A stretch of DNA of 35,887 nt from an uncultured bacterium. Lineage in GTDB: Bacteria > Patescibacteriota > Saccharimonadia > UBA4664 > SCTI01. The notes under the pieces are model-generated. The model was given only the letters and a program-made list of their open reading frames with translations, ran no database searches and was not told the DNA's origin. This document shows, piece after piece, positions 4,340-27,769 of this stretch. Within the stretch, counting starts at the first letter, position 1, and each line of letters begins with the position of its first letter. Both the position numbers and the translations under genes were made by a program. The DNA is taken from NCBI GenBank assembly GCA_965364395.1, contig CBDTXE010000002.1, positions 1 through 35,887 on the forward strand, in the 5' to 3' direction.

Positions 4340-6082
4340 TCAGGGCGCCGTTGGCGGCACCGCGTAATACTGCAGCAGCCAGCGAGTCAGGTTGGCAAAT
4401 ATCGGCACCGTTGTTTTTTCGGCAAACCCCTCTACCTTGGGCTTGTTCACCCGTACCATAACCACAAACTTGGCATCCTGGGCGGGCGCAAAGCCCACAA
4501 ACGTGCCGATGTTACCCAGTTTAAGGTATCCCCCCTTGGGATCGGGTATCTGGGCGGTGCCGGTTTTGCCGGCAATGTCGTAGCCGGGCGTCTTAGCCAG
4601 ATAGCCCGATCCCCTCTCAACCACAACTTTCATCATACCGGTAAGGTCGCTGGCGGCCTGCTTTGAAATGACGTCCTGCTTGACCACGAATGGCTGGGTC
4701 TTCTGAACTGTGCCATCCGGCCGCGCCTTTTCCTCAATCAGATACGGCTTATATAGCGTTCCCCCGTTGGCCACCGCCGAGACGCCCGCGGCCATCTGTA
4801 GCATCGTGACCGACAGTCCCTGTCCAAAGGTCATGTTGGCGTAGTTGGTATCGTTACTGCTCGGCGGATTAACTTTGCCGGCCGACTCTCCGCTCTGCTC
4901 TATCCCCGTCCGCTGGCCAAACTTGAAACGTTCGTGGATGTAAGCGTAGAAGGCCTTTTTGGACTGGGCGGTGATTTCCTCGGCGTTGCCGCCCAGGGAC
5001 CGCAGTATGAAGATCATGCCGGTATTCAGCGAGTCGCGCAGGGCGTTGGTCATGCTGGTATTGGGGCCTAGACGGTGCCCGGCCGCGTTGCAGGTCTTGT
5101 GCTCGTGGATTTGCACGCACCCCGTGTCGTTGTAGCGGGTATCGGGAGTGATTTTGCCGGAATCCAGACCGGCCGCCACCGTGAACACTTTGAAGCCCGA
5201 CCCGGGTTCAAAGGCATTGGTGACTACCTGGTTTTCAAAGTCCCGGTAATCCTTGACGGCAGAATAGGTATTTGGGTCATAGCTGGGATAGTTTGCCATG
5301 GCTTTGACTGCGCCCGTTTTGGGGTCCATAACTATGACGCTGCCCGAGTCCGCCCTGACGTTCTCCACGCCCTCTTTCAGGAAACGCTCGGCCTGGGCCT
5401 GGATGTTGCGGTCGAGAGTTAGCACCATGGTGGCGCCGTCTACCGGCGGCTTGCTCATGTTGTCGGACGTGGCGATGGGGACGCCGTTGGTATCCGTCTT
5501 GGCATTGAGGAGCCCCGGCGTGCCCTTGAGTTCTTTATCAACAAAGCCCTCGACGCCGTACTGGCCCACCCCGTCGTTATTAACAAAGCCGAGGACCTGG
5601 CTAGCCAGCTGCCCTTCGGGATAAGTGCGGTATGTTTGGTTGACCATGCCGATGCCGTGGAGTTTTAGCGCGCGGATCCTAGTGGCCATTTCCTCGGGTA
5701 CGCGCGTCTTGATGACGGCATATTCTTTACCCTTCTCCAGGGCGTCAAGGTACTTCCGGGCAGGCTCCCCCGTGACCTCAGCCAGCCGCCGGGCGGTTTC
5801 CGGCTTGTCGGGAACCTGGGTAGGATCGGCATACACCAGCTTGAGCGTCTGGTTCAGTGCCAACGGCACCTTAGTCTCGCCGTCGCGCAGGTATATCTGT
5901 CCGCGTGCGGATGGCACGACATATTTGCGCTGGTGCTCATTGGCCGCCATCGCCCGATAGTGGCCGTTCATAGCCACCTGTATATACGCCAAACGCGCAG
6001 CCAATATCGCGCCTAAAATTAACAATAGGCATTGAAGGCCGCGCAGACGCGCCGAACTGGATCCCCCTGCTGTAAAACGCAT
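4340..6082 (-). CDS. ftsI: Class B penicillin-binding protein / septal transpeptidase (FtsI-like)
   Basis: 580-aa ORF with an N-terminal TM anchor and SxxK (SGFK), SxN (SLN) and KTGTA motifs. AGGAAG lies upstream of the ATG. Follows the ftsL-like gene. Confidence 0.88.
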   Translation of the reverse strand: MRFTAGGSSSARLRGLQCLLLILGAILAARLAYIQVAMNGHYRAMAANEHQRKYVVPSARGQIYLRDGETKVPLALNQTLKLVYADPTQVPDKPETARRLAEVTGEPARKYLDALEKGKEYAVIKTRVPEEMATRIRALKLHGIGMVNQTYRTYPEGQLASQVLGFVNNDGVGQYGVEGFVDKELKGTPGLLNAKTDTNGVPIATSDNMSKPPVDGATMVLTLDRNIQAQAERFLKEGVENVRADSGSVIVMDPKTGAVKAMANYPSYDPNTYSAVKDYRDFENQVVTNAFEPGSGFKVFTVAAGLDSGKITPDTRYNDTGCVQIHEHKTCNAAGHRLGPNTSMTNALRDSLNTGMIFILRSLGGNAEEITAQSKKAFYAYIHERFKFGQRTGIEQSGESAGKVNPPSSNDTNYANMTFGQGLSVTMLQMAAGVSAVANGGTLYKPYLIEEKARPDGTVQKTQPFVVKQDVISKQAASDLTGMMKVVVERGSGYLAKTPGYDIAGKTGTAQIPDPKGGYLKLGNIGTFVGFAPAQDAKFVVMVRVNKPKVEGFAEKTTVPIFANLTRWLLQYYAVPPTAP

Positions 6083-9818: not shown

Positions 9819-10822
9819 TAGCTGAAATAAATCCTCATGATGACGCGGGCCAGTGCCTCACCGTCGTGGCGCATCAAGTTGCGCTTAAGAAGCACATCGG
9901 CATCGGACTGTTCCACCCCGCCGGCCAACAGCCGCTCGCCCAGGGCGACGTACGAACGCATGGCAAGTTCATTGCCGTCCGCCGCCACGGGCGTCTCCCC
10001 TTCCCGCATATACTTTTCGGTAAGTTCGCGGCCGGGCTTGGCGGTGTTATACAGGACAAAATCAAAGACGTTGCCGCCCAAATGGCGCTCAATTTGGTCG
10101 GTGTAATCATGGACGGCCATGCCGTCGGTCTTACCGGGCTTATTGACCAGGTTTGACACATAAATGACAGTCGCCTGGGATTCCTTGAGCGCCTGGGCCA
10201 TGCCCTCCGGTAGCAACACCGGAATTAGTGACGAGTACAGGTCTCCAGGACCCACTACCACGATATCGGCCTGGCGGATCGCCTGGGCGGCCTCAGGGTT
10301 GACCTGCGGGTGCGGATCAAGGCTGAGCAGCGGCCGGTCATTGTTAAACAGGTGGTCTTGGATGTTGCGTTCCAATTTGACCTGCGTCCCGTCCGACATG
10401 GTGGCGACCAGGCGGATATCTTCCGTAGTGACGGGCAGCACCCGGCCGCGAACTTGTAAGACGTGCTCGGCCAGCTTGACGGCGTCGGCAAAGTTGCCCG
10501 ATGTCTTTTCCAGGGCGGTGATCAGGATATTGCCAAATGAGTGCCCTTTCAGCATACCCTCATCAAAACGATAGTTGAGTAGCGTCCGCATATACTCCGG
10601 CGAATCCGACAGCGCCACCAGGCACTGGCGGATATCCCCCGGCGGCAGAGTACCCAGCTCGTCGCGTAAAACGCCGGTTGATCCCCCATCGTCACTCATG
10701 TTGACGATGGCCGTCAGGTCGCTGACATAATGGCGCAGGGCGGACAGCAGCATAAAGCTACCGGTACCGCCACCGATCGTGACGACTTTAATGCCTTGGG
10801 TTGCCGTGGCGTCGTTGATCAT
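9818..10822 (-). CDS. yvcK: YvcK/CofD-family protein (UPF0052, gluconeogenesis factor-like)
   Basis: 334-aa ORF with the family signatures VVTIGGGTGS and NMSDDGGSTG. Confidence 0.85.
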   Translation of the reverse strand: MINDATATQGIKVVTIGGGTGSFMLLSALRHYVSDLTAIVNMSDDGGSTGVLRDELGTLPPGDIRQCLVALSDSPEYMRTLLNYRFDEGMLKGHSFGNILITALEKTSGNFADAVKLAEHVLQVRGRVLPVTTEDIRLVATMSDGTQVKLERNIQDHLFNNDRPLLSLDPHPQVNPEAAQAIRQADIVVVGPGDLYSSLIPVLLPEGMAQALKESQATVIYVSNLVNKPGKTDGMAVHDYTDQIERHLGGNVFDFVLYNTAKPGRELTEKYMREGETPVAADGNELAMRSYVALGERLLAGGVEQSDADVLLKRNLMRHDGEALARVIMRIYFS

Positions 10823-13225: not shown

Positions 13226-13690
13226 ATGGCGCACCGTCCCAACAGCAACCATGACGTCCGCACAATCGTCCTTCCGTCGGGGCGCAAAATCGAGGTCGTC
13301 TACTTCGCCGACCCCGATTCCGCAGGTGTTCCTCCGGCTACGCCTACCCGCAGGCTGGAAGACCTCCACATCTGCGTGGAGTGCCAGTCGCCCCTGGTCT
13401 ACCCCACCGAGTGGGAGGAGACGTCGTCGACGCACTGGGAGGTCGTGCTGCGTTGCCCGGAGTGCCTACTCGAGCGTACCGGCAACTTCAACCAGGAAGC
13501 CGTCGACAGCTTTGACGAGGAGCTGGACCGCGGCACCGAAGAGTTGGTGCGCTCCCTGAAGCGCGTCACCCGGGCGAACATGGAGGAAGAGGCCGACCGC
13601 CTCGCCGCCGCCCTGGAGGCCAACGCCGTCTGGCCGATGGACTTCGACGGGGCCAGGTGCTTCGGCATGACGGCCTACCGCTACAGCTAA
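13226..13690 (+). CDS. Hypothetical zinc-ribbon protein (CxxC-x23-CxxC), paralog of 13853-14455
   Basis: 154-aa ORF with GAAGGAG upstream of the ATG. Contains CVEC...CPEC. Has its own promoter and downstream hairpins. No family name recognised. Confidence 0.7.
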   Translation: MAHRPNSNHDVRTIVLPSGRKIEVVYFADPDSAGVPPATPTRRLEDLHICVECQSPLVYPTEWEETSSTHWEVVLRCPECLLERTGNFNQEAVDSFDEELDRGTEELVRSLKRVTRANMEEEADRLAAALEANAVWPMDFDGARCFGMTAYRYS

Positions 13691-13852: not shown

Positions 13853-14455
13853 ATGTTCATGCATTACCTGCGTTTCGAGAAGCTTCTGACGGATATAGTC
13901 CTCGATGCGGCGGCAGCCATCGGCCAACTGTACCGCCTCTACCAGCGGACGCCGCTGCCTCCACGGCGCGGACCGCTGCAATGGAGGCAGCTGCAGCCAA
14001 TCGCCGACCCTGCCAGCCTGGCGGACGTCCTGGGTACCCACTGGCCAAACGCCGTCCTGTCGTACGAGCTTGGGGACCGCCGCGTTCGCACCCGCAGCAC
14101 AAGGGTGGACTACCGGCCGCACCTGCACCAAGGAGCCGGCCACGCGTACGGATCCCTGGATTCACCGCACCAGTGCGAGGTTTGTGGGTCCAAGCGCCTG
14201 CTCGTCACCCAAGAAACGGAGCTGTGGCTCACCCACGTGCTGGTGGATGTGCAATGCGAGGCATGCGATGACAACCGCCGGCTGGTCATGGACCAGGCCA
14301 CTCACCGGCGCTTCCAGCGCTGCCTGCGGGACGAGCAAGCCCGGCGCAATGAGCACGACATCGGCTCGTTCCGCCGGGAACTGGACAGCGGCCAAATCAG
14401 CCCGGGAAGCTTCAGCGCCGGAGCACCCGACGACGGCATGGAAGGCGGCATTTGA
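13853..14455 (+). CDS. Hypothetical zinc-ribbon protein (CxxC-x23-CxxC), paralog of 13226-13690
   Basis: 200-aa ORF with a strong SD. Contains CEVC...CEAC at the same 23-residue spacing, and the C-terminal segment is alignable with the upstream gene. Confidence 0.7.
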   Translation: MFMHYLRFEKLLTDIVLDAAAAIGQLYRLYQRTPLPPRRGPLQWRQLQPIADPASLADVLGTHWPNAVLSYELGDRRVRTRSTRVDYRPHLHQGAGHAYGSLDSPHQCEVCGSKRLLVTQETELWLTHVLVDVQCEACDDNRRLVMDQATHRRFQRCLRDEQARRNEHDIGSFRRELDSGQISPGSFSAGAPDDGMEGGI

Positions 14456-15024: not shown

Positions 15025-15441
15025 TCACGCGGCCACGAGCTCTGGCGCGCTGTCTTTGGCGGCATCGGAGTGCACGGCCAGGTAAATGCGCCAGAAGCAG
15101 TAGAGGTACTGCCAGCCCAGCAGGCGTTTCGGGTTGAACATGAGGGGCGCAGCCTCCATTACAAGGTGGAATTGGGGGCGGCCGTAGTCCGGCATCACGT
15201 GGTCGTGGATGTATTCGGCGCAAATGCCCTTGGCTGGCCGGAGAGGAGCCTCATTGGCAAGCGTCGCCCTCATGACGTATTGGCGCACAATTTCCTGCCC
15301 GGCGGCTTCAGCCGGAGACAGGTTGGCGATCCGGTGCGCCAGCACCTCACACGCGTTTGCGAAGATCTGATTCCCATCGAGCGGGTCGGTGGGCGGCAAA
15401 TCTTCGACGGAATTCAGCTTGAATCGATTCCGTATAGTCAT
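15025..15441 (-). CDS. Hypothetical protein (138 aa) between the histidine kinase and the receiver
   Basis: ORF with its own promoter, a GAAAGG SD-like element and a terminator hairpin. No family recognised. Confidence 0.55.
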   Translation of the reverse strand: MTIRNRFKLNSVEDLPPTDPLDGNQIFANACEVLAHRIANLSPAEAAGQEIVRQYVMRATLANEAPLRPAKGICAEYIHDHVMPDYGRPQFHLVMEAAPLMFNPKRLLGWQYLYCFWRIYLAVHSDAAKDSAPELVAA

Positions 15442-20436: not shown

Positions 20437-21601
20437 CGTCGGTAGTAGCCTTCAGTAATCCTTTGGCCAATTGTATCATGAGCGGCTTGCCCGCCCCCAC
20501 GGCCTGCGCGTCAGCAACCACCTTGCCATCGTGCCGTACAATGGCGTATCCGCGCTTGAGCGTGGCCGTGGGGTCGTAGCTGGCCAGCAGCCGCCGCAAA
20601 GACGCCAAACGCTGCTGCTGGGCGGAAAACACGTGCCCTTGGGCGCGGCGTAAGCGGTCCTCATAGGAAACCACCCTCTGGCGCGGAAGCCGCACAAACC
20701 TTTCCAGCGCCGAAACCTGGCGCACGATGTTATGGCGGTAGGCTTCCGTGCGTTGCCGGACGGAGCGGTACATCCGGTTCTGGCGGTGGCCAATGTCGCC
20801 TGCCACCTCCCTCTTGTCCGGCACGACGATGCGCGCGGCGTCGGTGGGCGTGGCCGCCCGCCGGTCCGCGGCAAAATCGGCCAGGCTGACGTCAATTTCA
20901 TGTCCCACGCCCACTATGGTAGGCGTGCGGCTGCCGGCCACCGCCCGGGCCACCATTTCCGTGCTAGAAGCCTGGAGGTCTTCCAATCTACCGCCGCCGC
21001 GGATGACAACCAGGACGTCCGGCGGCGCCGCCAATTGGTTAAAGTATCCTATGGCGCCGACAATCTGTTCCGGCGCCGCGGCGCCCTGGACCTGAACATC
21101 GGCCAAGACGATGCTCAGTCCGCCCCAACGCTGGCCCAGGACTTTAACAAAGTCTGCATAGGCCGCCGATTGGCCGGACGTCACCAGCCCGATGGACCGC
21201 GGGAAGCGAGGCAACTGGCGCTTGCGCGCCGGATCAAACAACCCCTCCTTCTGCAGCTTGGCTTTAAGCAACTCAAAGGCGCGCTTAAGCTCCCCTTCCC
21301 CCGCCAGGGCGACGTAGCGGACGGTAAAGCTAAACTTACCCCACTGGGTTATTTTGGGCAGGCCAGTCACGCGCACTTTCATGCCGTCCTCAACTGGGAC
21401 TTTCAGCATGTAGAGCGGCATGAAGCACGGCAGCGTGGCATCCCCGTCCTTTAGGTCAAAAAACACCCATTTGCCCTGATTGACCTTGTAACCCGACACT
21501 TCGCCTTCCACCGTTACCGCCGGAAAGGCAAATGCCAGGGTTTCGTTGAGGATTCCCAAGAAGGCTTTGACGCCGATGATTTGGTCCGATGGTGGCTGCA
21601 T
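20429..21601 (-). CDS. xseA: Exodeoxyribonuclease VII large subunit
   Basis: Start moved to MQPPSDQIIGVKAFLGILNE (ATG 21601). Has an OB-fold N-terminus and the XseA catalytic core. TATACT (21617-21612) lies 10 nt upstream and there is no SD. Confidence 0.88.
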   Translation of the reverse strand: MQPPSDQIIGVKAFLGILNETLAFAFPAVTVEGEVSGYKVNQGKWVFFDLKDGDATLPCFMPLYMLKVPVEDGMKVRVTGLPKITQWGKFSFTVRYVALAGEGELKRAFELLKAKLQKEGLFDPARKRQLPRFPRSIGLVTSGQSAAYADFVKVLGQRWGGLSIVLADVQVQGAAAPEQIVGAIGYFNQLAAPPDVLVVIRGGGRLEDLQASSTEMVARAVAGSRTPTIVGVGHEIDVSLADFAADRRAATPTDAARIVVPDKREVAGDIGHRQNRMYRSVRQRTEAYRHNIVRQVSALERFVRLPRQRVVSYEDRLRRAQGHVFSAQQQRLASLRRLLASYDPTATLKRGYAIVRHDGKVVADAQAVGAGKPLMIQLAKGLLKATTDDD

Positions 21602-21636
21602 GATAATGAAAAGTATATCGCAGGTTGGCATGGCAT

Positions 21637-21667
21637 GGGGCGCCCGGACCAAATATCCGGACGCCCC
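21637..21667 (-). terminator. 12-bp hairpin (one G-U pair) after the 21677-22174 gene
   Basis: On the minus strand GGGGCGTCCGGA pairs with TCCGGGCGCCCC, 10 nt after the stop. No U-tract. Confidence 0.45.
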
Positions 21668-21676
21668 TAGGCTTGG

Positions 21677-22174
21677 CTATGCGGGCAGGCGGGCGGCTAC
21701 TGCCTGCCTGGCCGGCTGCACGCGTGGTGCCCGGCGCTTGGCGCGCTGGCGCTGGCGGCGGGAGGCCAGCGCCTGGCCGCGCAGGGTGCGGTGCATGCGG
21801 TCGCTCTCCCCCGCTACCAGCTTGGCAAAGCTATCGCAGGCCTCCTGGCTGCCACGTTCCAGAGACTGCAGGAGGTCGCCGTCCACATAGAGGCAGCCAA
21901 TGCCGGCGTGGCGGGCATGCTCCACCACTTGCTTCTGGCGGAAAAGCACATCCTGGCCGCTCCCATCCCCCTGATGGTACGCACAGGCAACCACATAGAC
22001 CTTGTGCTTGGGCAGGAACAGGTGGAAGCGGACGGACCGGCGTCGGCGGTCGGTGCGGTCACGCGGCAGCTCCATTCGCGGGACCCTGTCAATGACATCC
22101 CCGTAGCGGGGCTCTCCCTGGCCGTCGTCCTGCAGCCAGTGCTTCAGCCGTCGCGTTGCCGATGGCTTGCGCAT
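21677..22174 (-). CDS. Hypothetical protein (165 aa), second gene of the ORFan operon
   Basis: Start moved to MRKPSATRR (ATG 22174), preceded by GAAGGGA. The ORF-track start at 22378 lies inside the upstream gene. Arg-rich C-tail. No family recognised. Confidence 0.5.
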   Translation of the reverse strand: MRKPSATRRLKHWLQDDGQGEPRYGDVIDRVPRMELPRDRTDRRRRSVRFHLFLPKHKVYVVACAYHQGDGSGQDVLFRQKQVVEHARHAGIGCLYVDGDLLQSLERGSQEACDSFAKLVAGESDRMHRTLRGQALASRRQRQRAKRRAPRVQPARQAVAARLPA

Positions 22175-22215
22175 GGATGTCCCTTCTGGTTTGGGTGTGC
22201 ACGTAAGTCTTTGGG

Positions 22216-22752
22216 CTAGGCCGCCGCGGCAACCAGCTGGCGCCGCTGGAGCTTGCGACGGGTCTTGGCCGGTGGCCGGCGCTCCTCCGGCGCACCCACC
22301 AGCTGGAGCAGGCTCCATGGCGTCATGAGCTGGCCGTAAGCCTCTTCCCGCTTGAAGGCGACGGTCATGATCCAGCAATGCACCACATTGACAGCGTCGG
22401 TTTCCGGCAAATTGCGCAGCAGCGCCAGCATCTGCCGGTTGATATACAGTACCGGCCGGCGGTACCGGCCTTCAATGGCCTCCATCCTGGCCTTCTTGCC
22501 GGCCCAGACGCTGCGGGAGTTGGTTATCTCAATCTCCATCTGCCGCCCGCAAAACGTAAACTCCAGATGGATGTCAGGCTGCATGCCACGCCCTTCCGGG
22601 CGGCGGTACAGCCGTGATTCCCACTGCATCGTTACGTCGGCTATCTGGCCGACGAGCTGCGCGACCAGCGCCTCCCCGTTGTCTTCCCTTGGCCTCCTAA
22701 AAGGATCACAGACGAGCTCGGGTGAAGGCGTGTACCGCTGCTGCTGGGTCAT
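22216..22752 (-). CDS. Hypothetical protein (178 aa), first gene of the ORFan operon
   Basis: ORF behind an approximately 107-nt leader. AGGGTAGG lies upstream of the ATG at 22752. No family recognised. Confidence 0.55.
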   Translation of the reverse strand: MTQQQRYTPSPELVCDPFRRPREDNGEALVAQLVGQIADVTMQWESRLYRRPEGRGMQPDIHLEFTFCGRQMEIEITNSRSVWAGKKARMEAIEGRYRRPVLYINRQMLALLRNLPETDAVNVVHCWIMTVAFKREEAYGQLMTPWSLLQLVGAPEERRPPAKTRRKLQRRQLVAAAA

Positions 22753-22775
22753 GGATGCCTACCCTGGTCGTGATA

Positions 22776-22859
22776 TCAAAAAACCGCCAGGCGGCGGCGT
22801 GCTGAGAGGCTGACGCTGCAAGCGGCAATGGGCACGATGTTGGTATCGGCTCCCCTCAT
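22776..22859 (-). CDS. Candidate leaderless 27-codon leader ORF (MRGADTNIVPIAACSVSLSARRRLAVF)
   Basis: Hand translation. The ATG lies 6 nt after TATGAT. Codons CGC CGC CGC CTG GCG GTT TTT TGA run through the hairpin and U-tract. Confidence 0.35.
   Translation of the reverse strand: MRGADTNIVPIAACSVSLSARRRLAVF
22778..22797 (-). terminator. Attenuator-like hairpin CCGCC-GCCT-GGCGG plus T6 inside the operon leader
   Basis: 5-bp all-GC stem followed by TTTTTT on the minus strand, 25 nt upstream of the ATG at 22752. Confidence 0.4.
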
Positions 22860-22865
22860 GCCCTA

Positions 22866-22899
22866 ATCATAAAATAAGGACAAGCAGATTGTCAATCTG
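22866..22899 (-). promoter_or_regulatory. Promoter TTGACA-18-TATGAT whose -35 sits in a perfect 15-bp palindrome CAGATTGTCAATCTG
   Basis: Minus strand has TTGACA (22895-22890) and TATGAT (22871-22866). The palindrome spans 22885-22899 (7-1-7). Confidence 0.6.
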
Positions 22900-23026: not shown

Positions 23027-23485
23027 ATGACCACGGCAGTGTTGGAGATGCCCACCACGACAACGGCCCGCGCCGAGGAGCCGGAGCCGTTCGTGCCCGT
23101 CGGGGACCTCGTCCGCTGTCTGGCGGACGCCGCCCTCAAGATCGTTGGCCGAGACAGCCAGGACCCCAAGAAGCTCGGCGACGCCGTCGAGATGCTGTGC
23201 CAGCAGCACGCCCTCACCATGCGTGCCGCGGAAGTTCGCCACCTGATCGTCGCCTACATCGACGCCGAACGCACGCCAGCTCCCCCGCTCTTCGGGCGGT
23301 TCGGCAAGTGGGTCACCACCCACTGCCCGGAGCCCGAGGGCTACTCCCTCGTCGTCGCGGCCGCCTGGCTGAAGGCTTCCGTCTGGAAGCATGCCTTCCC
23401 CGTCGTGGACGCCAACTGCAATGCCGCCGCCCGGAGGGCCATCCAGGCCGGCCGCCAGAGCAAGGCCATCGCCATGGCCGCCTAG
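23027..23485 (+). CDS. Hypothetical protein (152 aa), divergent from the ORFan operon
   Basis: GGAGG lies 5 nt upstream of the ATG at 23027. Has its own promoter and a downstream hairpin. Longer ORFs overlapping it on both strands lack such signals. Confidence 0.6.
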   Translation: MTTAVLEMPTTTTARAEEPEPFVPVGDLVRCLADAALKIVGRDSQDPKKLGDAVEMLCQQHALTMRAAEVRHLIVAYIDAERTPAPPLFGRFGKWVTTHCPEPEGYSLVVAAAWLKASVWKHAFPVVDANCNAAARRAIQAGRQSKAIAMAA

Positions 23486-23537: not shown

Positions 23538-23570
23538 AAACATATTAAGCAATTACGGTATGATACCGAT

Positions 23571-24698
23571 ATGGAATACATTGCCATCCTGGGCCGCCAG
23601 CCAGAGCTGGGGCTTGTAGAACTGGAATCATTGCTTGGCGCCGGCGGCGTCAAGCCGTTTGGGCGCTATGCGGCGCTATTGGCCGCAGACTATGACCTAA
23701 ACGATCTTGGCGGCGTGCAAAAAATAGGCGAAGTACTGTACCGTGGCCCCGCCCGCGACCTCAATGAAACGCCAATCCTGCCGCATGACCTACCCTTGAA
23801 GGACGGCAAGACCACCATTGGCCTGAGTTACTATGGCCTTAAAGCTACCCAACGTTTTGTGGTGGCCGCCGGCATGACTCTTAAGAAGCGGCTAAAGAGC
23901 CACGGGCCGGTCAGGATCGTGGCGCCGCAGTCCGGTACCGCGCTGACGGCCGCCCAAGTCAAATTTAACGCCCTCACCCGCGACGGCTTTGAACTGCTGG
24001 TCTGCGTTCACAAGCAGGAAATGGTCGTTGCCATCACCACCGCGTTCCAAGATATCGACTGGTACGCCACCCGCGACTACCAGCGGCCAACCCGCAGCGC
24101 CAAAGTTGGCATGCTCCCGCCCAAATTGGCCCAGATAATGGTCAACACCACAGATGGCAACCCGGTCTACGACCCGTTTTGCGGGACCGGCGTGGTGCTC
24201 CAAGAGTCGCTACTGCTTGGACGTGACGCGCTGGGGTCCGACACGGCTCAGGAAATGGTCCAGGCTACCAGGGCAAACTTGGAATGGCTGGGAAGGATGC
24301 GCTCTGGCCTCCCGGAGTGGTCGGTCAGTTGCCACGATGCCCGCACTGTCCGTATCCAAAAATCGCCACTAGCCATAGTCAGCGAGGGCTACTTGGGTCC
24401 CAACCTCGTCGCGCCGCCCGACGCCAGCCGCTATCGCGAGCTGGCATCGCCGCTCCAAGAGCTGTATGCCAGCAGCCTGCTAAATTGGGCTGGCCAAATA
24501 CCCGCTGGCACCGATGTCACTATTACGGCGCCGGTTTGGAACACCACCAAGGGGTGGCGAGGCCTGGACCTGGTTGACCAACTACCTGATATGGGCTATA
24601 CTCTGAGGAGTTTTGCGCATGCCGATAGCCGCGCACTGGTGTACCGGCGGACCGGCCAGATGGTTGGACGCCAACTATTAATCCTTAGGAAAAACTGA
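23571..24698 (+). CDS. Putative RNA methyltransferase, UPF0020/Trm11-like (SAM motif DPFCGTGVVLQE)
   Basis: Start moved to MEYIAILGRQPELG (ATG 23571). TATGAT (23559-23564) lies 6 nt upstream and there is no SD. The stop overlaps the rpmA start (TGATG). Confidence 0.6.
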   Translation: MEYIAILGRQPELGLVELESLLGAGGVKPFGRYAALLAADYDLNDLGGVQKIGEVLYRGPARDLNETPILPHDLPLKDGKTTIGLSYYGLKATQRFVVAAGMTLKKRLKSHGPVRIVAPQSGTALTAAQVKFNALTRDGFELLVCVHKQEMVVAITTAFQDIDWYATRDYQRPTRSAKVGMLPPKLAQIMVNTTDGNPVYDPFCGTGVVLQESLLLGRDALGSDTAQEMVQATRANLEWLGRMRSGLPEWSVSCHDARTVRIQKSPLAIVSEGYLGPNLVAPPDASRYRELASPLQELYASSLLNWAGQIPAGTDVTITAPVWNTTKGWRGLDLVDQLPDMGYTLRSFAHADSRALVYRRTGQMVGRQLLILRKN

Positions 24699-24970: not shown

Positions 24971-24999
24971 CGACTGGCCTTATTGCCAGTGTCAAATTC

Positions 25000-25022
25000 A
25001 GGCCCTCCGGGGCTTGTTTTTG
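25000..25022 (+). terminator. Intrinsic terminator after rpmA
   Basis: The stem is AGGCCC-TCCG-GGGCTT and includes one G-T wobble pair. It is followed by GTTTTTG. Confidence 0.55.
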
Positions 25023-27331: not shown

Positions 27332-27769
27332 TTAGTGGGTACCGGTAGTACCAAAGCCGCCACGGTTGGCGCCTTCGAGCGAGTCAACTTCTACTAATTG
27401 GTAGTCGGCCAGACGGAAAGCCATGAACTGGCCAATGCGGGCGCCACGGGTCACCGTTACGGGCTTAGAAGTAAAGTTTAAGGCAGCCATTTTGTACTCG
27501 TCGCCATCGCCCCTGAAGTCGCCGTCAAAAATGCCGATGCCGTTGACCGGCATGATGCCAAACTTATGCGTCGAGCTGCGGGCAGCCAGCATCCCCCAGT
27601 AACCGCGCGGCAGCTCAATGGCAACATTTAGCGGCACGTAGCGGACTTCCCCTGCTGGGATAACCGTGTCTTCCCTGGCGCACAAGTCGTAAGCCACCGC
27701 GCCATCGGTCTGCCGAGCCGGAAATGGCAAATCCTTGTCGAACCGTTTGATTTTAATCTGCGCCGGCAT
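27332..27769 (-). CDS. dut: dUTP diphosphatase (trimeric dUTPase)
   Basis: 145-aa ORF with dUTPase motifs (AARSS, GIGIFDGDFRGD, RGGFGTTG). Confidence 0.88.
   Translation of the reverse strand: MPAQIKIKRFDKDLPFPARQTDGAVAYDLCAREDTVIPAGEVRYVPLNVAIELPRGYWGMLAARSSTHKFGIMPVNGIGIFDGDFRGDGDEYKMAALNFTSKPVTVTRGARIGQFMAFRLADYQLVEVDSLEGANRGGFGTTGTH

Follow-up and report, generated by a model that had tools for sequence, protein, structure and literature searches.

In the Escherichia coli pyrBI (pyrL) and pyrE attenuators, a promoter-proximal intrinsic terminator lies upstream of the structural gene, and a short open reading frame (ORF) reads into or through this terminator, where a ribosome following closely stops the hairpin from forming (PMC5021804, PMC4824070). 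Tight coupling across the pyrL leader peptide blocks terminator formation (PMC5021804), and termination in E. coli drops from ~90% to <10% when a stop codon is moved to a position 5 bp upstream of the terminator, and is restored by uncoupling of translation (PMC4824070). The classical trp, his, leu, and pheL attenuators also carry a leader-peptide ORF upstream of an intrinsic terminator, together with conserved regulatory codons, mutually exclusive antiterminator and terminator hairpins, and a leader stop codon upstream of the terminator. In mycobacteria, leaderless poly-Cys short ORFs of the "ribulon" form the first cistron, and such an unannotated ORF controls the downstream genes in cis by its translation (Canestrari et al., bioRxiv 10.1101/834739). 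Premature termination between an upstream ORF (uORF) and a small DUF1127 gene of Sinorhizobium meliloti depends on uORF translation, and this attenuation has been proposed to monitor ribosome availability (PMC12218461). Here, we analyzed a stretch of 35,887 nucleotides from an uncultured member of the Saccharimonadia (contig CBDTXE010000002.1, assembly GCA_965364395.1; hereafter the window), in which a predicted leaderless short ORF of 27 codons reads into a hairpin and U-tract upstream of two genes, ORF1 and ORF2. Judged from its sequence and from related loci, the region may represent a lineage-restricted accessory gene cassette of a GC-rich Saccharimonadia bacterium with a translation-coupled transcription attenuator, a reading to which we give roughly even chances.

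Comparison with the described systems revealed both likenesses and differences. The short ORF of the window is predicted to be leaderless, with its AUG at +1, whereas the pyr leader ORF is led by a Shine-Dalgarno (SD) sequence, and the host is an episymbiont of the candidate phyla radiation (CPR). Because the leader has no U-rich region before the hairpin for pausing sensitive to uridine triphosphate (UTP), and because its cargo is not pyrimidine biosynthesis, it would share the pyrBI-like logic without being a member of the pyrBI class. The mycobacterial ribulon senses Cys through its poly-Cys tract and unmasks a sequestered ribosome-binding site, whereas the leader in the window would target an intrinsic terminator, and the structure kept among the leaders is that terminator and not a helix masking the SD sequence; no conserved codon tract exists here, with one Cys in the window peptide and none in those of L002 and L016, the two related loci (denoted by L numbers) with the same kind of leader. 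The S. meliloti system differs in polarity and in element: termination there is promoted by accessible C-rich codons. Its uORF is SD-led, and its sequences are unrelated to ours. None of the features that distinguish the classical attenuators was found in the three leaders. The kind of control, a ribosome-masked terminator, is already known; what would be new is its leaderless form and its occurrence in Saccharibacteria.

Cultured members of the CPR are few, their genomes are tiny, and regulators are scarce in them; to our knowledge, gene regulation in this radiation, Saccharibacteria included, is almost entirely unexplored. Our literature search turned up no publication that deals with attenuation or with leaderless translation in Saccharibacteria. 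If correct, the reading would provide a concrete regulatory element for this group, would show leaderless translation used for cis-regulation besides ordinary genes, and would extend the pyrBI-type principle of a ribosome masking a terminator to leaderless mRNAs.

Architecture of the leader region

All elements of the leader lie on the minus strand. The promoter consists of a -35 hexamer TTGACA (22890-22895, in the context CAGATTGACA) and a -10 hexamer TATGAT (22866-22871) separated by an 18-nt spacer, and fits the consensus at 11 of 12 positions; four sites of this quality occur in the 36-kb window, all of them intergenic and upstream of genes. The ATG at 22859 follows the -10 hexamer after 6 nt, at the predicted transcription start, and opens the 27-codon short ORF (22776-22859; MRGADTNIVPIAACSVSLSARRRLAVF plus TGA at 22778-22776). 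Its 3' end reads CGC CGC CGC CTG GCG GTT TTT TGA, with three Arg codons as codons 21-23 (22799-22791). Codons 21-26 overlap the hairpin (G)CCGCC-GCCU-GGCGG(U) at 22783-22798, and the T6 run (22778-22783), part of the segment GGCGGTTTTTTGATA found identically in L016, holds the stop codon. ORF1 (22216-22752, 178 aa, isoelectric point [pI] 9.9) starts with ATG 22752, 23 nt after the short-ORF stop, and is preceded by a weak SD-like GGGTAGG (22758-22764), the counterpart of which in L002 is AGGAGG. ORF2 (21677-22174, 165 aa, pI 11.1, 17% Arg) starts 41 nt after ORF1 and has an SD-like GAAGGGA (22180-22186) upstream. The initial annotation had placed promoter, short ORF, Arg codons, hairpin, T6 run, and both genes at these same positions. 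The gap of 23-25 nt between the hairpin with its U-tract and ORF1 is too short for a promoter, and therefore every ORF1 transcript must cross the hairpin. We also considered the hairpin as the terminator of an upstream or convergent gene and rejected this, since the genes on either side diverge from each other and, read on the plus strand, the stem is followed by a run of A rather than T.

Leaderless starts are found at conserved genes of this lineage. The methyltransferase gene starting at 23571 shows TATGAT, 6 nt, and ATG, a geometry identical to that of the leader, and two other genes of the window, with starts at 10822 and 34168, show the same spacing between the -10 hexamer and the ATG. 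In six close relatives, xseA is leaderless as well (a TATAAT-like hexamer, 6-7 nt, ATG) with a conserved N-terminus, while 10 nt separate the -10 hexamer from the ATG of xseA in the window itself. The same geometry, earlier remarked on at several genes without an SD sequence, is thus present at conserved housekeeping genes in the window and its relatives. Since conserved genes start leaderless here, the AUG at +1 of the predicted leader transcript would very probably be translated. The two neighboring starts, at 23560-23573 (methyltransferase) and 21601-21625 (xseA), are divergent, each with its -10 hexamer just before the ATG. In L004, L005, and L009, the start codons of these two genes are ~35 nt apart (around position 6000), and the distance is wider in L007, L008, and L010; these back-to-back leaderless starts imply overlapping divergent promoters in the closest relatives.

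The hairpin was compared with other terminator-like sites by a strict definition, namely a GC hairpin with five or more T directly behind it, with the expectation taken from dinucleotide shuffles. Four strict terminators were observed in the window against 1.18 +/- 1.0 expected, and the chance of one falling in a given 100-nt leader is ~0.002. Two of the four are terminators at the ends of genes: that at 24999-25016 follows the L27 gene, and the other lies at 8523-8510. Both consist of a short stem, a tetraloop, and T5-6, like the leader hairpin in design. A strict terminator-like site at 27532-27552 on the minus strand (7-bp stem plus T5) lies inside a coding region (ORF 27335-27769). The hairpin segment of the window (43 nt, including a flanking 4-bp helix) has a folding free energy (dG) of -12.8 and a z-score of -1.87. 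Taken alone, the window makes a weak case for the leader device; the real support comes from conservation of the whole leader at two other loci.

Recurrence of the leader at related loci

Comparison of the window with related loci revealed the same layout in L002 and L016. In L002, TTGACA is followed by 17 nt, GACAAT, 6 nt, and ATG, and the short ORF of 24 codons (MSGTGVILGPGVAPAIARLHVNAA) places its TGA stop in a hairpin loop; the stem of this hairpin has 10 bp, and U5 follows it. The 41-nt hairpin segment has a dG of -21.8 and a z-score of -5.07, and downstream of the U5 come AGGAGG and an ORF1 homolog. In L016, TTGACA is followed by 17 nt, TATAGT, 7 nt, and ATG; the short ORF, again of 24 codons (MRYAATSRDVFRPIDVKLPARTTA), ends with TAG directly after the 5' arm ACCGCCU of a hairpin that continues with a 13-nt loop, AGGCGGU, and U6 (dG -17.4, z -2.98). 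The TTGACA hexamer is invariant across four aligned homologous leaders and also present in L016. Counted from the ATG, the distance to the start of the U-tract is 76 nt in the window, 85 nt in L002, and 92 nt in L016, and an SD-led start follows 23-28 nt past the tract in all three: that of ORF1 in the window and L002, and in L016 that of a small Arg-rich ORF preceding the ORF1 homolog. This L016 ORF (4095-4250, plus strand) has 51 codons and an extremely Arg/Lys/Pro-rich product (MFNPVSRRSSRKPTQLPQRRGRK...), and the ORF1 homolog begins 5-8 nt after its stop in a different frame; it could be an additional small gene or a frameshifted N-terminus.

The similarity of these leaders is out of step with the divergence around them. 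The ORF1-family proteins flanking them are only 30-39% identical, and the window and L016, with XseA proteins only 55% identical, have an identical 15-mer. The short-ORF peptides of the three loci are unlike one another. In all three, the predicted fold of the leader has a closed 5' domain and, after it, the terminator; an RNAalifold analysis of the three leaders was uninformative because MAFFT misaligned their differing loop sizes. It seems that a loop deletion shifted the frame in the window, so that its short ORF now crosses the stem to the UGA in the U-tract. Searches of 1.55 Mb of related DNA with a promoter-plus-ATGAG pattern and with an nhmmer profile of the leader matched only the window, L002, and L016, and no further copies were found by either method. 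A covariance-model search against Rfam 15 returned nothing relevant at E-values up to 1 in the leaders of the window, L002, L003, L006, and L016.

The last two of these, L003 with an ORF1 homolog and L006 with only an ORF2 homolog, have the promoter but a different leader, TAGGGTGAGC...; promoter and 5' end seem to be shared among the cassettes. This second leader type, a TTGACA-type promoter followed by (G/A)TAGGGTGAGC, occurs at 1668-1720 in L003, at 3571-3620 in L006, and at 1530-1665 in L002, where it serves the ORF1-only unit, the ORF2-only unit, and the ORF2 unit (in the diverged form GTAGGGATGC), respectively. The promoter context CAGATTGACA is found with the second type in L003 and L006. 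In L006, a U7 run is able to pair with the purine-rich ribosome-binding site.

A second hairpin (21637-21667, minus strand) ends the cassette in the window and separates ORF2 from the promoter of xseA. As folded it has 13 bp, made up of the 12-bp arms reported in the initial annotation and one closing pair, with a dG of -29.2, a z-score of -3.67, and no U-tract. Comparable strong hairpins end the cassettes of L002, L003, and L006; those of the window, L002 (1464-1505), and L006 (4201-4239) have dG values of -29 to -35 and lack a U-tract. Strong hairpins without U at the cassette ends, against a weak leader hairpin with a perfect U6, indicate that the termination signals of gene ends and leaders seem to be built differently.

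Proposed mode of control and alternative explanations

By the position of the promoter, transcription would start at the A of the leader ATG. A ribosome loaded at the 5' AUG and moving close behind RNA polymerase would cover the arms of the terminator as the U-tract emerges, the hairpin would be blocked, and the polymerase would continue into ORF1-ORF2. If loading or elongation were late, the hairpin would form and a transcript of ~85 nt would be released. The output would then reflect how well translation as a whole proceeds or is coupled, rather than how much arginine is available, with general translation capacity as the simplest candidate for the signal sensed. We favor this masking mechanism because the layout recurs at two distant loci, with the short ORF ending in or just after the hairpin. 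Of the ideas put forward earlier for this leader, ribosome-dependent control of the terminator therefore stands as the best reading, while sensing of Arg-tRNA is not supported, since the Arg run is absent from L002 and L016 and CGC is the commonest Arg codon.

Several observations weigh against translational masking. There are only three independent examples of the leader, and comparison of their folds and sequences identified no conserved sensor codons, pause site, or alternative antiterminator structure. The window hairpin is weak, with a stem of 5-6 bp, and the fold of the whole leader has a z-score of ~0. The short ORFs are open as expected by chance, with shuffle P values of 0.71, 0.73, and 0.45 for the three loci (~0.7 in the window, where the sequence is stop-poor), and frame +2 is likewise open in two of the three loci. 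The leader of L003 is 250 nt long and has neither an ATG at +1 nor a terminator, and the ORF2-only locus L006 also lacks both. Taken with the window, L002, and L016, which have both, this means that ATG and terminator are present or absent together; the uORF and hairpin that the initial annotation expected at homologous loci are kept in two and missing from L003, which makes the device frequent but not universal. Finally, in E. coli the first ribosome seldom catches up during the initial 100 nt if RNA polymerase does not pause (PMC4824070), and the terminator might therefore act constitutively, with a default that is maybe mostly "off". That the structured, unconserved 5' domain of the leader serves as a pause element is speculation.

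The alternative that survives best is that promoter, a transcript of ~85 nt, and terminator form an independent small RNA (sRNA) or small-protein unit, with ORF1 expressed by a fixed low level of leak-through and nothing sensed. A promoter, ~85-98 nt, and an intrinsic terminator are the standard anatomy of an sRNA gene, the terminator of L002 is strong (dG -21.8), and E. coli terminators in the first 100 nt usually escape ribosomes (PMC4824070). Compared with shuffled sequences, the short transcripts are more stably folded in L002 (z -2.65) and L016 (z -2.64). Against this alternative, the short transcript of the window has no unusual stability (z -0.47), sequence conservation inside the leader is poor, covariation is absent, and no Rfam family matches. 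The lack of conservation among the peptides makes a functional small protein unlikely, and an independent unit leaves unexplained why the three loci that keep the ATG at +1 also keep a stop codon at the hairpin, whereas L003 and L006 lack both. We regard this explanation as rather unlikely.

In a second alternative, attenuation would depend on a factor, either a protein such as the ORF1 or ORF2 product acting in autoregulation or a small ligand, that binds the 5' domain, and the short ORF would be incidental. The products are very basic (pI 9.3-11.3), which makes RNA binding plausible; the order of closed 5' domain and terminator is common to three loci; and autoregulatory leaders are common, the L10(L12)4 rplJL leader (PMC4538822) being an example. 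The nucleotides of the 5' domain are, however, unconserved beyond ATGAG, no anti-terminator alternative is predicted, and no Rfam family matches. Such factor-dependent control appears improbable.

The arginine-sensing attenuator, in which the supply of Arg-tRNA would be read out by the ribosome as it meets three Arg codons in the stem's 5' arm, has a very small probability. The CGC CGC CGC run does lie in precisely that arm, Arg is abundant in the products (12.8% for ORF1 and 16.9% for ORF2 against 6.5% for the genome), and the L016 leader peptide has 4 Arg in 24 residues. The run is nevertheless specific to the window, as L002 has one Arg and those of L016 are scattered, none consecutive; CGC makes up 51% of the Arg codons, and the run looks like a by-product of the GC-rich stem after the loop deletion. 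No alternative antiterminator was seen in the folds of the three leaders, a small sample, and the downstream genes are not Arg-biosynthetic. The logic would also be wrong, since a stall in the 5' arm blocks the hairpin and would yield more Arg-rich protein when Arg is scarce.

Chance formation of hairpin, U-run, and ATG as non-functional features of GC-rich intergenic DNA could account for the open frames and for a loose terminator scan that finds as many sites in shuffles (2 found locally versus 1.7 expected), but it is equally hard to credit given a hairpin with U-tract at a similar position and an ATG at the same position in three loci with such divergent proteins, the 15-nt identity between the window and L016, and the low expectation of a strict terminator in a given leader.

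The ORF1 and ORF2 families

In GC content by codon position, both ORFs look like genuine genes of this genome, with ~0.80 at third (GC3) and ~0.45 at second (GC2) codon positions. A full HMMER pass over 1.84 billion representatives identified two ORF1 relatives, P0003 (39% identity) and P0004 (36%), and a local profile search added a fourth family member in L016. The ORF1 family thus has four members, with homologs 30-39% identical and pI values of 9.3-10.1, and all four adjoin the methyltransferase gene. The ORF2 family has three members (window, L006, and L002; pI ~11.2), the L006 homolog matching at an E-value of 2.4e-11 and that of L002 more weakly. The description of both proteins as ORFans therefore holds approximately, as the families are tiny, and fails in the strict sense, as ORF1 has three homologs and ORF2 two. 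A word-indexed homology search returned only self matches, a repeated search with the ORF1 profile only the three known family members, and a metagenome scan with XseA 80 loci with no new ORF1 or ORF2 homolog. No relatives were found in collections of phages, viral contigs, and plasmids.

ORF1 occurs without ORF2 in L003, and ORF2 occurs without ORF1 in L006, so the two genes are separable and do not form the obligate pair that had been supposed. In L002, ORF2 has a strong hairpin upstream and, judged by eye, an apparent promoter of its own. We also considered paralogy of the two families; hhalign gave a probability of 0.5% and an E-value of 0.11, with the beta-beta-alpha-beta register aligned, which is not significant, and paralogy was rejected as unproven. 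Comparison of the window with L003 showed 36% identity for ORF1 and 67% for XseA, indicating that ORF1 diverges much faster than its neighbors.

The codon-usage scores, 0.20-0.29, fall inside the range of the genome (-0.01 to 0.27) or at its upper end. These values are native, and the foreign origin proposed in the initial annotation from codon usage was dropped. Scans of ORF1, ORF2, all of their family members, and the neighboring ORF3 (described below) against Pfam, NCBIfam, PHROGs, and PADLOC gave no match, and, together with the absence of phage, viral, and plasmid relatives, this leaves the suggested toxin, defense, or conflict module without a counterpart in these resources. The ORF1 and ORF2 products are predicted to be soluble and basic, and they probably bind nucleic acid for this reason.

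The residues conserved in the ORF1 family are E27, E45, G54, P59-D60, I74-E75, K86, E94, P100, and I104, among which E27, E45, P59-D60, E75, and K86 are invariant. Single-sequence AlphaFold models were poor, with predicted local distance difference test (pLDDT) scores of 41.8 (ORF1) and 53.4. The ORF1 model (pLDDT 42) has an alpha-beta-beta-beta-alpha-beta order compatible with the core of the PD-(D/E)xK nucleases (Vsr, DUF559, and VRR-NUC-like). Features of the family that recall these enzymes are an invariant Glu on a helix, a strand that opens with "PD", and, on the strand after it, "IE(I/V)T(D/N/E)". It differs in having Thr or Tyr at the position of the canonical Lys of (D/E)xK, with the invariant K86 placed on the next helix. 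The family had no Pfam or NCBIfam match at E-values up to 10, a profile search of the PDB found nothing, and Foldseek of the ORF1 model against the PDB gave meaningless matches with TM-scores of at most 0.31. A likeness to Vsr and DUF559 had been guessed at before; in profile comparison by hhalign it received a probability of 0.4% for YcjD (DUF559) and 0.2% for Vsr and so found no support, and the model suggests at most that ORF1 is possibly a divergent nuclease-like fold.

These analyses define two very small protein families, known so far only from Saccharimonadia and located at one conserved position wherever flanking sequence is available. Fast-evolving relative to their neighbors, they are candidates for lineage-specific nucleic-acid-binding functions. 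We consider it possible, though doubtful, that the locus holds the first cis-regulatory attenuator of the CPR, in which a leaderless, sequence-indifferent mini-ORF that ends in the terminator makes the expression of a fast-evolving, locus-fixed basic protein with a nuclease fold, and of a second basic protein, conditional on coupling between ribosome and polymerase. If so, an episymbiont would tie a potentially harmful function targeting DNA or RNA to its translational state.

Host and gene neighborhood

The window has a GC content of 59%, unusually high for Saccharibacteria, most related loci being at 40-52%; other GC-rich loci are L006 (58%), L015 (59%), L014 (57%), and L039 and L073 (56% each). 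Its XseA is 66-74% identical to those of metagenome-assembled genomes labeled Candidatus Saccharimonadales or Saccharimonadia, which places the window in an unusually GC-rich member of the Saccharibacteria (CPR/TM7). Contig L001 belongs to the same strain as the window (99.93% identical, with 3 mismatches, at the contig end) and carries no population information.

ORF1 and ORF2 are placed between two divergent housekeeping genes, those for a UPF0020 methyltransferase and for exonuclease VII (xseA). The order L27 and UPF0020 methyltransferase (leftward), then xseA and xseB (rightward), is kept in more than 60 Saccharibacteria loci. The methyltransferase gene directly adjoins xseA, with no genes between, in the six closest relatives, and ORF1-like or ORF2-like genes occupy the gap only in the window, L002, L003, L006, and L016. 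In more distant Saccharibacteria (L012-L083, ~60 loci), the gap is filled by a conserved membrane-protein gene of ~330 aa that has been lost in the closest relatives of the window, so that genes have been gained and lost repeatedly at this position.

Divergent from the leader promoter, ORF3 (23027-23485, plus strand, 152 aa, GGAGG upstream) lies between that promoter and the methyltransferase gene in the window strain only. No homolog of it was found among 163 related loci, and its GC3 of 0.91 is the highest in the window. Elsewhere, the segment 13187-15474 contains three small ORFs (13226-13690, 13853-14455, and 15028-15441) in which GC3 is raised to 0.77-0.83. The first two have the top native codon-usage scores among the scored genes, similar to those of ORF2 and ORF3, and the segment may be another run of lineage-specific genes.

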